Shown: piece by piece, positions 31,105 to 43,155 of the stretch
Layout of the letters: every line of letters begins with the position of its first letter
Numbering within the stretch: position 1 is the first letter of the stretch
From: Candidatus Eiseniibacteriota bacterium
Lineage (GTDB): Bacteria > Eisenbacteria > RBG-16-71-46
Direction: 5' to 3'
Length of the DNA: 64,000 nt
Assembly: GCA_963717935.1 (NCBI GenBank)
Contig: CAVQXP010000003.1
Coordinates: 32,001 to 96,000 of the forward strand
Translations under genes and position numbers: made by a program
The notes under the pieces: generated by a model
Database searches by the model: none
Told to the model about the DNA's origin: nothing
Seen by the model: only the letters and a program-made list of their open reading frames with translations

Positions 31105-32787
31105 TCAACCGCGCGCCAGCCTCCGGTACTTGATGCGGTGCGGCTGGTCGGCCTCGCGGCCGAGCCGCTCGTGGCGGACCTTCTCGTAGTCGGCGTAGTT
31201 GCCCTCGAAGAACACGACCTGGCTGTCGCCCTCGAAGGCCAGCATGTGGGTGGCGATGCGGTCCAGGAACCAGCGGTCGTGGGAGATGACCACGACGCAG
31301 CCGGCGAACTCGATCAGCGCCTCCTCGAGCGCACGCAGCGTGTCCACGTCGAGGTCGTTGGTGGGCTCGTCCAGGAGCAGCACGTTGGCCCCGCTCTTGA
31401 GGATGCGCGCCAGGTGGACGCGGTTGCGCTCGCCGCCCGAGAGGTCCTTCACGCGCTTCTGCTGGTCGGCGCCCTTGAAGTTGAACGAGGCCACGTAGGA
31501 GCGCGAGTTCATCGAGCGCTTGCCCAGCTCGATCATGTCCTTCCCGTCGGAGATGGCCTCCCAGACGTTCGCGTCGGGCGGCAGCGCGTCGCGGCTCTGG
31601 TCCACGTAGGCCAGGCTCACGGTCTCGCCGATGCGCAGCGTGCCGGCGTCGGGCTTCTCCTGCCCGGTGATCATGCGGAAGAGCGTGGTCTTGCCGGCGC
31701 CGTTCGGGCCGATCACGCCGATGATGCCGGCGGGGGGGAGCTTGAACGACAGGTCCTCGATGAGCAGGTTGTCGCCGTAGCCCTTGCGCAGGTGCTCGGT
31801 CTCGATGACCACGGTGCCCAGGCGCGGCCCGGGCGGGATGTAGATCTCGATGTTCTCGAGCTTCTCGCGGCCGTCCTCGGCCAGCAGCTTCTCGTAGGCG
31901 GCGAGCCGCGCCTTGCCCTTGGCCTGCCGCGCGCGCGCGGCCATGTGCACCCACTCGAGCTCGCGCTGGAGCGTGCGCTGCCGTGCGCTCTCCTGCTTCT
32001 CCTCGACCGCGAGACGCTTGCGCTTCTGGTCGAGCCAGGAGGTGTAGTTGCCCTCCCAGGGGATGCCCGCGCCGCGGTCGAGCTCCAGGATCCAACCCGC
32101 CACGTTGTCGAGGAAGTAGCGGTCGTGGGTCACGGCGACGACCGTGCCGGCGTACTCCTTGAGGAAGCGCTCGAGCCAGGCGACCGACTCGGCGTCGAGG
32201 TGGTTCGTGGGCTCGTCCAGCAGCAGCAGGTCCGGCTCCTGCAGCAGCAGCCGGCACAGCGCCACGCGCCGCCGCTCGCCGCCCGAGAGCGTCGTCACGT
32301 CCTGCTCGGGCGGCGGGCAGCGCAACGCGTCCATGGCGATCTCGAGGTGGCGCTCCAGCTCCCACAGGTTGCCGGCATCCATCTTGTCCTGGACCTTGGC
32401 CTGCTCCTCGAGCAGCTTCGCCATCTCGTCGTCGTCCAACGGCTCGGCGAAGCGCGCGCTGATCTCGTTCCAGCGGCGCACGACGGCCATCTTCTCGGCC
32501 ACGCCCTCCTGGACGTTCTCGAGCACGGTCTTCGCCGGGTCGAGGGTGGGCTCCTGCGTCAGGAAGCCGACCGTGTAGCCCTTGCCGAGGAAGGCCTCGC
32601 CGATGAAGTCGGGGTCCACGCCCGCCATGATGCGCAGCAGCGAGCTCTTGCCCGCGCCGTTCAGGCCGAGCACGCCGATCTTGGCGCCGTCGAAGAACGA
32701 GAGCCAGATCCCCTTGAGGATCTCGCGCTTGGGGGGGACGACCTTGTGGAGGTCCTTCATGGTGTAGATGAAATCGGGCGACATCAT
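31105..32787 (-). CDS. ettA: Energy-dependent translational throttle EttA (ABC-F)
   Basis: [32 protein letters not shown], and C-terminal PHRIKY. Confidence 0.96.
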
Positions 32788-32907
32788 GCCTCGCAAGGTG
32801 GAGGGACCCGGGAGATCCGTGGGAGAACGCGGCGGGACAGGATGCGGGATGGCGGTGGCGCGCGCAAGGCGGGTATGCTGCGAGCGCCAGGACCGCCAGG
32901 AGGTGCA

Positions 32908-34284
32908 ATGCGGGCGACGCGAGCCATCCCCATCCTGTTCCTCGTCGTCACGGTCCTCTGCGCGGCGCTCGATGCCCCGGACCGCAGGGGAGTCGCGTGG
33001 GGGTTCGTGGGCTTCGCGCTGGCCGGCGCATTGATCCTCGTCCTCTGGCCCCGCGGCAGGCGGGCGCGCGGGGCGGAGGCCCCGCCCACGGCGCTCGACC
33101 TGCTCCGTGCGGGCCTCGTGCTCGGGTTCACCGGCTTCGGCGGAGGGCTCGCGGTGCTCACGCAGGTGGAGCACCGCCTGGTCGGCCGCGAGCGCTGGAT
33201 CACGCCGGAGGTCTTCCTCGAGTCCACGGCCCTCGGGCAGAGCCTCCCCGGGGCGATCTCGACCAACACGCTCGGCTTCGTCGGCTGGCGCCTCGCCCGG
33301 CTGCGCGGCGCGCTCGCGCTCGAGGGCGGCTTCGTGCTGCCCTCGTTCCTCATGATGGTCGCCTTCAGCCTGCTCTACGCACAGCTGCGCCAGTTCGTCG
33401 TGGTCGCGGGGATCTTCCACCTGCTCAACCCGGCCGTGGCGGGGATGGTCGGCGCGATGGCCATGAAGCTGGCCGCCGAGCTCGCGCGCGCGCCCGGGGG
33501 GGCGCCCGCCGGCCTGCGCGGCCTGCTGCGGGACCCCTGGGCGCTGCTTGTCGCGCTGGGGGCCGCGCTCGGGGTCGCCGTGCTGGGGCTCGGCGTTCCC
33601 GAGGTCGTGCTCGCGGCGGGGCTGCTCGGCGTGGTGCGCCACCTGGCGCGGAACTCGGGCGCGCTGGCCGCGCTGCTTCCCTGGTCGCTCGGAGGGCTCG
33701 GCCTGGCGGTCGCCACGCAGGGGCCGGTGCGCCTGGCCGTGCTGGGCGAGATGCACCGCCTGGGCGAGCTGGCGACCGTGTTCCTGCGCGCCGGGGCGCT
33801 CACCTTCGGTGGGGGCTACGTCATCATCCCCGTGCTCGAGGCCGAGTTGGTGCAGGGGCGCCACTGGCTCACCGCGCAGGCGTTCGTGGACGCGATGGCG
33901 CTCGGCCAGGTCACGCCGGGGCCGGTCGTGATCACCGCGACCTTCGTGGGCTACACGCTGGCCGGCCTCGCCGGTGCGCTGGCCTCCACGGTCGCGGTCT
34001 TCCTGCCGGCCTTCGTGCTCGTGGTGCTCGTGAGCCTCTCGCTCGACCGCTTCCGCCGCTCGCCCGGGATCCAGGCGTTCCTGCGCGGTCTGCAGCCGGC
34101 CGTCGTGGGGCTCATGGCGGCGGCGACGGCGACCCTGGTGCGGCATGGCGTCCAGGATGTGCCCGGGGCCGTCGTGGCGGTGGCTGCGTTCCTGCTGCTC
34201 TGGAGGCTGCGCGTCAATCCGATGTGGGTCGTGCTGGGCGCAGGCACGCTCGGCGCCGCCTGGGTGCTGCTGCCGGGCGTCTGA
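32908..34284 (+). CDS. chrA: Chromate transporter (CHR family, long chain)
   Basis: Two CHR repeats: GFGGG..QSLPG and TFGGG..QVTPGP. Confidence 0.88.
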
Positions 34285-37722: not shown

Positions 37723-38010
37723 TCAGGCGTCGAGGCGGACGGAGCAGCGACCGAAGCGGCCGAAGGCGAAGCTCAGCCGGGCGGGATGCGCGCGAGCCGC
37801 CAGCACGTCCCGATGGACGTAGAGGGCGATCCCGCCGGCGTCCAGGCACTCATGCCCGGCGGGGTCTTCCGGGATCTCGAGCGACCCGACCGGGCCGCGC
37901 TCGACCGTTCATCAGCCGTGCATGATCGCCTGGAGCGAGACATACAGTGCCCCGCCCCGGGCGGCGATGTACTCCCGGAGTTCCTCGGACTCGAAGCGGG
38001 CGTGTCGCAT
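37723..38010 (-). CDS. Candidate CC/Se-motif (HesB-like) selenoprotein with tandem UGA-UGA at codons 33-34
   Basis: MRHARFESEELREYIAARGGALYVSLQAIMHG-TGA-TGA-TVERGPVGSLEIPEDPAGHECLDAGGIALYVHRDVLAARAHPARLSFAFGRFGRCSVRLDA*. The frame stays open with coding-like codons, and a SECIS-like hairpin follows directly. Confidence 0.75.
37877..37904 (-). promoter_or_regulatory. Bacterial SECIS-like hairpin
   Basis: UCGAG-CG-CGGCCC-[GGUC]-GGGUCG-CUCGA. The loop starts 17 nt after the second UGA and 20 nt after the first. Confidence 0.7.
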
Positions 38011-38081
38011 GGCGGTCAGCATACCGGAAACCGCGGGGTGGGGCGATTCCCATCCGGGTCGTGCGCTCCTTCGTCTCCGGT

Positions 38082-38981
38082 CTAGGCCCGGCCCTGACGA
38101 CATGGCTGCGCGCGCCTCACGCTTTCCCACTGGATGGTGGGATGCACGATGCCGAAGCGCTCAGAAAGGTCGTGAGCGATGCGCGAGGTGAGATCGTCGT
38201 CGAAGGTCGCGCGGTCCGTGACGAGGTGTGCCGTGAGCGCGGTCTCGGTGGTGCTCATGGCCCAGATGTGGAAGTCGTGCACGTCGACGACGCCCGGCAC
38301 GGCCTCGAGATAGCCCCGGACCGCCACCGGGTCGATCCGGCCGGGTACGGCGTCCATGGCCAGATCGAGCGACTCCCGCAGGATCCTCCAGGCACCGACC
38401 ACGATGAGCGCGCTCACCAGCAGGCTGACGACAGGGTCGAGCCACGGCCAGCGGGTGAAGACCATGGCCACGCCGGCGAGGACGACTCCGAGGGAGACGG
38501 CTGCATCCGCCACGAGATGCGAGGCGGCGGCGCGCACGTTCAGATCGTCGCGACGGCCACGTCCCAGGAGCCAGGCGCTCAGACCGTTCACGAGGATGCC
38601 GAGCGAGGCCACGGCGATGACCGTGGGCGCGGCGACCGGCCCCGGATGACGAAGCCGCTGCACCGCTTCGAGCGCGACGGCGCCCACCGCGATCAGCAGC
38701 ACGACGGCGTTGGCCAGCGCCGCGAGGATGGTGGAGCGCCGCAGACCATAGGTGCGCCGGGTGCTGGGCGCGCGTCGGGCCAGGAGGATCGCGCCCCAGG
38801 CGAGCAGCAGGCCGAGCACGTCGCCGAGGTTGTGACCGGCGTCCGAGAGCAGTGCGAGGGAGCCGGACCGGAACCCGAACACGACCTCGAAGACGACGAA
38901 GGTGACGTTGAGCCCCACCGCCACGAGGAAGGCGGTGCGGACCCCGTCCGCGGCGGGCGGATGTGGATGGTCATGCGTCAT
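38082..38981 (-). CDS. Cation diffusion facilitator (CzcD/ZitB-like)
   Basis: SLALLSDAGHNLGD, HLVAD, VHDFHIW, HPTIQ. Confidence 0.92.
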   Translation of the reverse strand: MTHDHPHPPAADGVRTAFLVAVGLNVTFVVFEVVFGFRSGSLALLSDAGHNLGDVLGLLLAWGAILLARRAPSTRRTYGLRRSTILAALANAVVLLIAVGAVALEAVQRLRHPGPVAAPTVIAVASLGILVNGLSAWLLGRGRRDDLNVRAAASHLVADAAVSLGVVLAGVAMVFTRWPWLDPVVSLLVSALIVVGAWRILRESLDLAMDAVPGRIDPVAVRGYLEAVPGVVDVHDFHIWAMSTTETALTAHLVTDRATFDDDLTSRIAHDLSERFGIVHPTIQWESVRRAQPCRQGRA

Positions 38982-39014
38982 GTCGTCCTCGCGGCCGGCG
39001 CGCCGCCCGCGGAT

Positions 39015-39260
39015 TCACGCGGTCGCTCCGGACAGGATCTCCTTCAACTGTTCCACCGAGGGCACGCGTCCGGCGAACTTGAGCTCGCCATCGACGACGA
39101 GCCCGGGCGTGGACAGGATGCGATAGCCCAGGATGACGTTGAGGTCGGTGATCTTCTCGAGCTCGCAGTCGAGCCCGAGCTCCTTCACGGCGCGCTCGGT
39201 GTTCCGGTAGAGCCGTTCGCAGTTGGCGCATCCGGGGCCCAGGACCTCGATCCGGGTCAT
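39015..39260 (-). CDS. Small redox-active disulfide protein (thioredoxin_3 / MTH895-like)
   Basis: IEVLGPGCANC...STPGLVVDG. SD AAGGAG. Confidence 0.9.
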   Translation of the reverse strand: MTRIEVLGPGCANCERLYRNTERAVKELGLDCELEKITDLNVILGYRILSTPGLVVDGELKFAGRVPSVEQLKEILSGATA

Positions 39261-40349: not shown

Positions 40350-41417
40350 TCACGCCGCCGGCTCGCGGAACCAGCGCCGCCGCAACCACAGCGCCACGTT
40401 CACCAGGCCGATCAGGGCCGGCACCTCGACCAGCGGCCCGATCACCGCCGCGAAGGCGGCGCCGTGGTGGATGCCGAAGGTCGCGACCGCCACGGCGATG
40501 GCCAGCTCGAAGTTGTTCGAGGCGGCGGTGAACGAGAGCGTCGCCGACTGCGGGTAGCTCGCGCCCACCCGCTTGCTCATGAAGAACGAGACCATGAACA
40601 TGACGACGAAGTAGATGAGCAGCGGGATGGCGATGCGCACCACGTCGAAGGGCAGCTGGACGATCTTCTCGCCCTTGAGCGAGAACATCACGACGATGGT
40701 GAAGAGCAGGGCGATCAGCGTGATCGGGCTGATCTTCGGGATGAACCGGCGCTGGTACCAGTCCCTTCCCTTCGCCCGCAGCAGCGCGAAGCGCGTGATG
40801 ATCCCGGCCAGGAACGGAATGCCGAGGTAGATGAAGACGCTCCGGGCGATCTCGGCCATCGTGATGTTCACGGCCACGCCCTTCAATCCGAGCCAGCCCG
40901 GCGCGAGCGTGATGAAGACGTAGGCGTAGAGCGGGAAGAAGAGCACCTGGAAGACCGAGTTGAAGGCGACCAGGCCCGCGCAGTACTCGCTGTCGCCCCG
41001 GGCCAGGTCGTTCCAGACGATGACCATGGCGATGCAGCGCGCCAGGCCGATCAGGATGAGCCCCACCATGTACTCGGGCTGGTCCCGCAGGAAGAGCACG
41101 GCGAGGCCGAACATGAGGATCGGGCCGACCACCCAGTTCTGCACCAGCGAGAGCGCGAGCACCCGCCCATCGCGGAAGACGCGGCCCATCTCCTCGTAGC
41201 GGACCTTCGCCAGCGGCGGGTACATCATGAGGATGAGCCCGATGGCGATGGGGATGGACGTGGTGCCGGCGTTGAAGCGGTTCAGGAAGGGCACCAGGCC
41301 GGGGAACCGCCAGCCACCGCCGACGCCGACGGCCATGGCGAGGAAGATCCAGAGCGTCAGGTAGCGGTCGAGGAAGGAGAGCCGGCCGGTGACTCCGGCA
41401 GGGGAGGGCTCAGGCAT
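40350..41417 (-). CDS. acr3: Arsenite efflux transporter Acr3
   Basis: [47 protein letters not shown]. Confidence 0.96.
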
Positions 41418-41886
41418 GCGAAGGTCCGCTTCGGCGGGAGGGCGCGCGCGCGGGCGATGCGCGCCGGGCCCGGCGGGCGGGGCGGGGTGCCGCGACCTGC
41501 GCGAGACGCGACGGCGCCCGCCGGGCCGGTGGCAGGGCGCACAGCGCCTCGACCGGGACGGCCTTCACGCTGCGCAACCGGCGGCGGTCCTCGAGGATGC
41601 GGGGCTCCCGGTCGAGCGGCCCGCGCAGCAGGGCCAGCACCGCGCGGGCGTAGGGGTTGCGCTTCTCCGTGGCGAGCGCGTAGTGGCTCCAGCGGCCGTC
41701 GCGCCGGTCGGCCACCAGTCCCGCGACCCGGAGCAGCGCCAGGTGCTTCGAGACCGTGGAGGGAGCGAGCCCGAGCACGGCCTGCACCTGGCAGACGCAC
41801 AGCGGGCCGGCCTCGAGCAGCTTGAGGATGCGCGTGCGGGTCGGGTCGCCGGCGGCCTTGAGCGCCGCCTCGAGCTCAAGCAGCAT
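41410..41886 (-). CDS. arsR: ArsR/SmtB metalloregulator
   Basis: [14 protein letters not shown] (alpha-3 Cys site), STVSKHL, GRWSHY. Confidence 0.9.
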
Positions 41887-41897
41887 GGCCGTCCTTC

Positions 41898-41944
41898 CAT
41901 TTCGCCATGTGACGAAATGTAGTATCATGGCGCGTGGCCGTCAA
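41898..41944. promoter_or_regulatory. Putative ArsR operator overlapping divergent promoters
   Basis: Inverted repeat CATTTCG-N8-CGAAATG (41898-41919). Minus-strand TTGACG-17 bp-TACATT. Plus-strand TATCAT at 41923-41928. Confidence 0.7.
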
Positions 41945-42038
41945 GCGGCTCCGGGTTCGCCGGGCCGTCCGTGCCGCCGCGGTGCCCGAGATCGAGAGGC
42001 TGCTCGAGCCCCGAACGCCGAGTCCAAGGAGGATCCCA

Positions 42039-42440
42039 GTGACAGGTCGCACCGGACGCACCGCGCTGCTGCTCGTGAGCCTGGTGCTCATCGCTGCCGT
42101 GCCCGCTCTCGCCCGCAAGGCCCCGAAGCCCGCGCCGCCCGCCGCGCTCCCGCGCCTCCTGGACCTGGGCGCGACGAAGTGCATCCCGTGCAAGCGCATG
42201 GCCCCCATCCTCGAGGCGCTCAAGGTGGATTACGCCGGCGCCGTGGACGTGCAGTTCATCGATGTCTGGCAGAACCCGCAGGCCGGCAGGCCGTACGGCA
42301 TCCGGCTGATCCCCACGCAGATCTTCTTCGACCGGGCGGGCCGCGAGCGGTTCCGGCACGAGGGCTTCTACGCCCGCAAGGAGATCGAGCGGATCTTCAA
42401 GGACAGTCTCGGCGTGGCCCTGCGCCCCGCGGCGAAGTAG
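42039..42440 (+). CDS. Exported thioredoxin-family protein
   Basis: GTG after AAGGAGG, signal peptide, CIPC, IPTQIF. Confidence 0.88.
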   Translation: MTGRTGRTALLLVSLVLIAAVPALARKAPKPAPPAALPRLLDLGATKCIPCKRMAPILEALKVDYAGAVDVQFIDVWQNPQAGRPYGIRLIPTQIFFDRAGRERFRHEGFYARKEIERIFKDSLGVALRPAAK

Positions 42441-42456
42441 CGGGACCGGGGGACGC

Positions 42457-43155
42457 GTGGACGTCCTGGAGGGTCTGAGCGAGCAGCTCGCCTCGGTCAT
42501 CGCCCACAGTCCCGCGCTGGCGCCGCTGGCCGCGTTCCTCGGCGGCGCGCTCACCGCGCTCAACCCGTGCGTGCTGGCGATGGTCCCGCTCATGGTCGGC
42601 TTCTCGGCCGGCCTGGTCGGGCGTGGCGCGACGGGGCGCCCCTGGCGGCGCACCCTGGGTTTCTCCCTGCTCTTCGTCGGGGGCTTCGCGCTCGAGCTGG
42701 CGCTGCTCTTCACCGTCTTCTCCGGCGCGACGGCGGTCCTGAGCGCGCCCTGGTGGCGCTACGTGCTGGTGGCCGTGTGCGCCGTCACCGCGCTGCACCT
42801 GCTCGGCTGGCTGCGCCTGCCGTCGATCCCCCTGCCGCCGGCCGCCGCGCGGGCCGCGGGCGCGCTGGGCGCGCTCACGCTCGGCTTCGTCTTCGGGATC
42901 GTCTCGCTGCCGTGCACGGGGCCGGTGCTGCTGCTGCTGCTGGCCCTGGTCCCGCGGATCGGCGCGGCCGCGGCGGGCGGCCTGCTGTTCGCCTACGGGC
43001 TCGGGCACTCGCTGCTGCTGCTCGTGGCCGGTACCTCGGTCGGCGCGGCCGCGGCGCTCGCCCGCCCGGGCCGTCTCCAGACCGCGACCCGCTGGGTGCG
43101 CGTGGTCGCGGCCCTCCTGATCCTCGCGGGCGGGGCCTGGTTGTTCACGCACTGA
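42457..43155 (+). CDS. CcdA/DsbD-family transmembrane electron transporter
   Basis: LNPCV and LPCTGP motifs, about six TM segments. Confidence 0.87.
   Translation: MDVLEGLSEQLASVIAHSPALAPLAAFLGGALTALNPCVLAMVPLMVGFSAGLVGRGATGRPWRRTLGFSLLFVGGFALELALLFTVFSGATAVLSAPWWRYVLVAVCAVTALHLLGWLRLPSIPLPPAAARAAGALGALTLGFVFGIVSLPCTGPVLLLLLALVPRIGAAAAGGLLFAYGLGHSLLLLVAGTSVGAAAALARPGRLQTATRWVRVVAALLILAGGAWLFTH

Follow-up and report, generated by a model that had tools for sequence, protein, structure and literature searches.

The window analyzed here, a 64,000-nucleotide stretch of a contig from a Candidatus Eiseniibacteriota bacterium, carries on its minus strand a gene in which two adjacent in-frame UGA codons are very likely both decoded as selenocysteine (Sec). 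The best explanation, in which we have high confidence, is that the locus encodes a single IscA/HesB-like protein of 95 residues with a Sec-Sec pair, translated with a single SECIS element, its most likely role being the binding or hand-over of As(III). Sequence comparison may be regarded as having established the gene and its genomic context, the invariance of its UGA pair and the SECIS. The coordinates of all features are given in Table 1.

Table 1. Features of the UGA-UGA locus and its neighborhood, in window coordinates.
Feature	Position	Strand	Remark
Read-through gene, 95 aa, predicted IscA/HesB-like fold and G32-U33-U34	37723..38010	-	related to NF041239
Tandem in-frame TGA TGA, codons 33–34	37909..37914	-	tip of predicted β-hairpin (strands 21–31, 35–43)
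Cys89 in F-G-x-x-G-x-C, candidate third ligand	37744..37746	-	kept in 50/70 complete members
-10-like hexamer, without Shine-Dalgarno sequence	38018..38023	-	7 nt before ATG
Conserved SECIS upper stem-loop GCGGCCC-GGUC-GGGUCGC, 7 bp	37881..37898	-	loop at 37891–37888
Extended hairpin including variable lower stem	37877..37904	-	described in the preliminary description
Cation diffusion facilitator (CDF), PF01545	38082..38981	-	directly upstream of UGA-UGA gene
MTH895/ArsE-family thioredoxin-like protein, CxxC	39015..39260	-	
ArsP-family permease, PF03773	39308..40342	-	
Acr3 arsenite efflux transporter	40350..41417	-	TIGR00832, 454 bits (cut-off 283)
ArsR-family regulator	41410..41928	-	true start may be further in
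Divergent thioredoxin-like gene and CcdA/DsbD-TM gene	41934..43155	+	

Coding potential of the read-through frame

The frame opens with an ATG at 38010 and runs for 32 sense codons to the TGA pair, beyond which it continues for 61 further sense codons to a terminal TGA (37725–37723). This arrangement had been proposed in a preliminary description made from the sequence alone and was recovered exactly, as was the host-like codon usage past the UGAs claimed there. Under a host codon model, the frame downstream of the UGAs scores 0.21 and host genes average 0.31, while the other two frames of the same strand score -0.44 and -0.85 and the antisense frames at most 0.04. TGA-TGA terminates only 2 of 924 long host ORFs. 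The motif at the UGA pair reads M-H-G-U-U, with no conserved Cys upstream of the UGAs.

In 67 loci the start codon lies 31–35 codons upstream of the UGAs. A Shine-Dalgarno sequence precedes it in 39 of these 67 loci and a -10-like box, placed 7–8 nt before the ATG, in 15 (the window and 14 others), with both together in none. The -10-like box in place of the Shine-Dalgarno sequence suggests that near-leaderless mRNAs are produced from the gene's own promoter in these 15 loci, and the window gene possibly follows this mode of expression. A scan for sigma-70 promoters and terminators found no site at the window locus, and no Rfam family matched over it.

As would be expected if gene callers stop at the UGAs, protein databases return only halves of the protein, which either end at residue 32 or begin at about residues 36–39; that standard callers would split the gene had been foreseen in the preliminary description. 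Apart from such halves, protein searches with the read-through protein retrieved one unrelated repeat protein; Cys-Cys or Cys-Sec homologs of full length were absent from the results. The read-through protein has no match in Pfam, where 53 members of the family give weak scattered matches, and none in PHROGs; the PDB sequence search yielded no relative (best E 0.46), and no viral contig or plasmid matched the gene. Full-length members were thus invisible to the protein searches performed, and annotation may systematically overlook selenoproteins with tandem UGA codons.

Conservation of the UGA pair

An HMM search reading through stop codons was applied to 206 genomes of the phylum and located the gene in 13 of them. 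Of its 17 matches, two are 3′ pieces in one genome and 15 span the UGA site, all 15 with TGA-TGA. In addition, metagenomes were scanned with a pattern in which both codons were given as TGN (allowing TGC, TGT or TGG), and which required a fixed GPVGSL and was blind to TAA and TAG at these two positions. This pattern matched 118 stretches, 80 of which were taken into the analysis. Among these 80, 66 are homologs, scoring 16.5–93.7 bits with the motif masked, and TGA-TGA is kept in every one. The other 14 are non-homologous pattern matches with mixed codons, and TGA-TGA occurs in none of them. Retention in 66/66 homologs against 0/14 chance matches shows that TGA-TGA is more than a chance occurrence. 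The combined set contains 77 distinct loci, 70 of them complete. At identity thresholds of 90, 70 and 50%, the number of clusters is 59, 40 and 19, respectively, and the median identity is 37%. Contigs of related strains covered the gene in two of four sequencing runs, and under a 31-letter rule none of those listed bridged the UGA pair, so these contigs do not enter the evidence.

If only the first UGA encoded Sec and the second served as the stop, the product would be a 33-residue peptide ending in Sec, with the downstream half separate or untranslated. Such an order, Sec followed by a stop (UGA-UAG), is reported for SaoC (10.1101/2022.07.06.499078), and gene callers do report the two halves separately. 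However, the second codon is TGA in each of the 15 stop-blind copies, whereas true stops vary, as seen in the terminal stops of the 70 complete members (TGA 43, TAG 23, TAA 4). Furthermore, the half past the UGAs, for which the preliminary description had taken a lack of conservation as adverse, shows in-frame conservation and makes up one domain together with the upstream half. In the window, this half offers no in-frame ATG, GTG or TTG before codon 70, and the ATG contained within TGATGA opens another frame of only 20 codons. We therefore consider termination at the second UGA very improbable and retain read-through of both codons.

Two genomes hold two UGA-UGA copies each. In G139 (L013, L020, L021), a frameshift follows codon 65 in one copy, and a 3′-half remnant is found some 5 kb away from the intact one; in G027 (L162, L167), one copy shows no similarity past the SECIS region. 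In a divergent clade (L016, L017, L019, L162, L163, L165), P/L-S-G-R-M replaces P-V-G-S-L while TGA-TGA is kept; the hairpin there differs in sequence and has a CGGU-type tip at an unchanged distance.

A single SECIS hairpin proposed to serve two codons

The GGUC loop of the hairpin in the window is situated 17 nt past the second UGA and 20 nt past the first. Of the longer hairpin in the preliminary description, the upper stem GCGGCCC/GGGUCGC proved to be conserved and covarying, while the lower stem UCGAG/CUCGA is not conserved and represents one of several folds. The element fits the bSECIS model as outlined in PMC13188914, with a 4-nt GGUC loop, a 7-bp stem, spacings of 17/20 nt and -20.0 kcal/mol.

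Among 65 distinct sequences, pairing in the upper stem reaches 94.7% of cells, compared with 86.8% in shuffled and 30–61% in slid controls, and changes on both sides of a pair occupy 20 cells, compared with 4.0 in shuffles. These compensatory changes cluster in a few clades and therefore represent few events rather than 20. The two covarying pairs (CG 51 / GC 11; CG 54 / AU 3 / GC 3 / GU 3) link third codon positions, where the changes are silent and which the metagenome pattern had left free. The codons forming the loop are almost fixed (CCG in 64/66, GTC in 62/66), and the next Pro codon varies (CCG 28, CCC 19, CCT 14, CCA 4). In 55 of 66 sequences, the loop is closed in the minimum free energy fold. 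An RNAalifold consensus kept only three pairs, and the stability of the single hairpin showed no excess over shuffled sequence (z = 0.02).

To place the two spacings, we compared 20 single-Sec selD genes of the phylum, taking the best hairpin with a G-first loop in each and leaving six of the 20 unclassed. The loop lies 17 nt from the UGA in eight of these genes and 20 nt in five, one of which ties with a 27-nt option; one further gene ties between 18 and 27 nt. Since selD loops occur at 17 or at 20 nt, both spacings of the UGA-UGA gene are used singly in the phylum. Across the phylum (L184–L211), the Sec form of selD with one TGA alternates with forms lacking a stop.

These distances suggest a route by which one hairpin could serve two codons. 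SelB bound to the single in-frame SECIS would bring Sec-tRNA to the first UGA, with the loop 20 nt away; one translocation later, SelB would bring a second Sec-tRNA to the second UGA, now with the loop 17 nt away. Both insertions would then precede the arrival of the ribosome at the hairpin and its melting. We regard this two-cycle mechanism as likely, with somewhat less assurance than the double insertion of Sec itself. A bacterial SECIS normally lies at a set distance from one UGA, so a naturally invariant UGA-UGA pair on one hairpin offers a test of SelB cycling and of RF2 competition over consecutive codons. Cycling of SelB on a tandem UGA is also relevant to the making of multi-Sec proteins.

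Selenocysteine machinery of the host

The host genome contains the four genes selA, selB, selC and selD. SelA (457 bits), SelD (339 bits) and SelB (308 bits plus a C-terminal winged helix) were identified, together with a tRNA-Sec with the anticodon UCA (71 bits), which is the sole UCA tRNA above the Rfam cut-off. The host selD adjoins the tRNA-Sec and carries an in-frame UGA in C-S-G-U-A-S-K with a G-first loop 17 nt downstream. A second tRNA-SeC called by ARAGORN (G000:C2:66885-66982) is absent from the Rfam tRNA-Sec matches, resembles coding sequence and is probably spurious.

In this assembly, selB is interrupted by two frameshifts and selD by one (G000:C4:50282-52191, minus strand, and G000:C4:1909240-1910312, plus strand). 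As a background rate, 7 of 58 ORFs, some of them repeat views of one gene, are frameshifted relative to their orthologs in a genome of the same genus. The lesions in selB and selD are probably assembly errors, with strain-level decay as the less likely alternative. In eight other carrier genomes, selA is present in all (cut by a contig end in one), and selB is present in all in an open frame of at least 515 aa. Because nearly all genomes of the phylum have a tRNA-Sec (145 of 151, in a tally including the unpublished genome G073, on which no other claim depends), co-occurrence with the Sec machinery is necessary but non-discriminating here. When the whole genome was scanned for further Sec genes, seven candidates emerged, of which only the UGA-UGA gene was convincing; the scan missed selD and is thus insensitive. 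No FdhA above the cut-off was detected in the genome.

These data also bear on the proposal that UGA-UGA is read as Cys, Trp or Gly, by recoding or by a near-cognate tRNA, or that the gene is a pseudogene or an assembly artifact. The assembly does show indel errors or lesions, including those in selB and selD, but an artifact cannot be common to 77 distinct loci. Recoding is opposed by the use of TGA as the commonest host stop (581 of 924 long ORFs) and by the identity of the only UCA tRNA above the Rfam cut-off as tRNA-Sec; moreover, Trp and Gly score below Cys at these positions on the NF041239 model. The chance that any of these readings is correct appears minimal, and Sec at both codons is preferred.

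Predicted fold and family relationships

With Cys modeled at both sites, AlphaFold2 predicts a single domain spanning the UGAs (pLDDT 95.6), in which residues 32–34 occupy the exposed tip of a β-hairpin. The top seven of 12 VIA matches and the top nine Foldseek matches are IscA/SufA/HesB-like, at weak scores throughout (Z at most 5.4, E at least 0.04), the best being 1r94 (Z 5.4, rmsd 3.2, 76 residues).

At the sequence level, residues 8–75 of the window protein align with positions 6–73 of NF041239, the CC/Se motif family (E 1.2e-9), with 38.2 bits, which is below the curated cut-off of 40. NF041239 is matched by 51 of 53 members at E ≤ 0.1, the best at E 1.5e-11. The relation to small HesB-like CC/Se-motif proteins suggested in the preliminary description is supported by the homology and by the predicted fold, which resembles IscA/HesB proteins at weak structural scores. 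We would describe the UGA-UGA genes as a branch related to NF041239 rather than file them as members.

Reading TGA as Cys improves the score on NF041239 by 7.7–10 bits over X in all four members tried. For the window protein this gain exceeds that of Gly (+2.4), Ser (+0.7) and Trp (-1.3). In addition, when compared by eye, the first UGA coincides with the Sec of the three published Sec-type NF041239 representatives, which carry CxxU followed by Ala or Gly (PMC12013277). This lends indirect support to the earlier suggestion that both residues correspond to cysteines replaced by Sec, although no Cys-Cys homolog was retrieved; the assignment of Cys to the second UGA position derives from the HMM score and the family name.

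Compared with NF041239, which it resembles in size and with which homology is detectable, the UGA-UGA branch lacks the upstream Cys and has two adjacent Sec codons in place of the CxxU motif with one Sec catalogued in Table 1 of PMC13188914, and it adds the GPVGSL/SECIS block and Cys89. The HesB-like/IscA_HesB_Se proteins (TIGR01911, NF038090) and IscA/SufA resemble it in the predicted fold, at weak structural scores, with Sec located in the loop that follows the second strand; known HesB-like/IscA_HesB_Se proteins, as described in PMC13188914, carry one Sec in UxGP. NF038090 was matched weakly by 3 of 53 members (best E 0.035).

The same Sec-Sec protein might alternatively act as an A-type-like Fe or Fe-S carrier, or serve to store or sense selenium, its synthesis responding steeply to the selenium supply. 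The predicted IscA/SufA-like fold agrees with a carrier role, as do the weak match of one of 53 members to PF01521 (E 0.004) and the aldehyde:ferredoxin oxidoreductase genes adjoining three loci. IscA, however, has a C-terminal CxC pair, which is absent from the UGA-UGA family, where Cys89 is the only other frequent Cys, and this makes an Fe-S carrier less likely. No isc or suf genes were found among the identified flanking genes, and the genome holds two separate PF01521 genes. We consider this group of roles improbable.

Relation to known selenoproteins

The Sec-Sec form would appear to be a variant of a known selenoprotein lineage that poses an unusual problem of decoding, and it is well supported by the comparisons above. 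SaoL, SaoC, HgcA, KCU-star, MbdU and the UxxU Prx-like proteins resemble it in having a vicinal chalcogen pair or two Sec residues and in their metal or metalloid context, but their vicinal pairs are given as Cys-Sec (CU or UC) in Table 1 of PMC13188914. That table of a 2026 review covers 119 bacterial selenoprotein families, some rows of which are without a motif; among the motifs listed, none is UU, and no motif given for a multi-Sec family has Sec residues side by side. Phrase searches of the literature, as well as term searches covering parts of deep-Sep and BSepDB, yielded no report of tandem Sec in bacteria.

In animals, some selenoprotein P genes may have adjacent Sec codons; there, the SECIS is located in the 3′ UTR and works by a different mechanism. 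A vicinal Sec-Sec pair represents unusual chemistry, and we infer that the product could form a vicinal diselenide.

Arsenic context and proposed function

In the window, the UGA-UGA gene follows arsR, acr3, arsP, the MTH895/ArsE-like gene and the CDF gene on the same strand. This arsenic-operon context is new relative to the preliminary description. An 86-codon ORF at 38971–39231 was rejected as a shadow frame of the ArsE-like gene.

Neighboring genes were counted in flanks of at most 2.5 kb, many of them short, and three of 14 chance loci were left out. Under these conditions, acr3, arsC, arsM, arsP or arsR lies beside 33 of the 77 distinct loci and beside none of the 11 chance loci. ArsR and ArsP are not arsenic-specific; counting only acr3, arsC or arsM gives 21 of 77 loci. 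No ars genes were seen in the flanks, often short, of the remaining 44 loci. The ars context occurs in 10 of the 19 clusters formed at 50% identity, scattered over the tree.

We propose that the product would expose Gly-Sec-Sec at the tip of its β-hairpin, where the vicinal selenolates, perhaps together with Cys89, would bind a soft metalloid, chiefly As(III), and that the bound As(III) could be passed among ArsC, ArsM and Acr3. By analogy, binding or hand-over of As(III) by vicinal selenolates is a plausible role, to which we would give slightly less than an even chance. The analogy is with ArsD, a small As(III) metallochaperone of ars operons that binds through two vicinal Cys residues and a third one. 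The likeness is a functional analogy only; the fold differs and Sec replaces Cys.

The main rival on function is that the same Sec-Sec protein works as a redox shuttle, in which a vicinal diselenide/diselenol cycle would draw on thioredoxin and CcdA to recycle ArsC, ArsM or other thiol enzymes. Genes for Trx, MTH895/ArsE-like, CcdA or AhpC-like proteins indeed stand beside 18 of the 77 loci and beside none of the 11 chance loci, and several loci place the UGA-UGA gene between arsM or acr3 and arsC. On the other hand, diselenides resist reduction and vicinal rings are strained, and no thioredoxin fold appears among the structural matches. We regard a shuttle as unlikely and favor the binding of As(III). 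More broadly, and tentatively, these genes may define a bacterial family with an obligate vicinal Sec-Sec pair, made by two SelB cycles on one SECIS, that serves ars operons as a selenium-based chelator or chaperone of As(III), thereby coupling arsenic handling directly to selenium supply. With the gene so often found in ars operons, a direct biochemical link between selenium and the detoxification of arsenic can be put to the test.

Other neighbors at individual loci (L061, L062, L051, L070, L072) include genes for ArsG organoarsenical efflux, aldehyde:ferredoxin oxidoreductase and ThiF-like proteins. Elsewhere in the window (32784–34146; plus strand 32997–34284), we presume from motifs that a membrane ORF resembling chromate transporters is oriented divergently to a region with ABC-F (EttA-like) and ispG.
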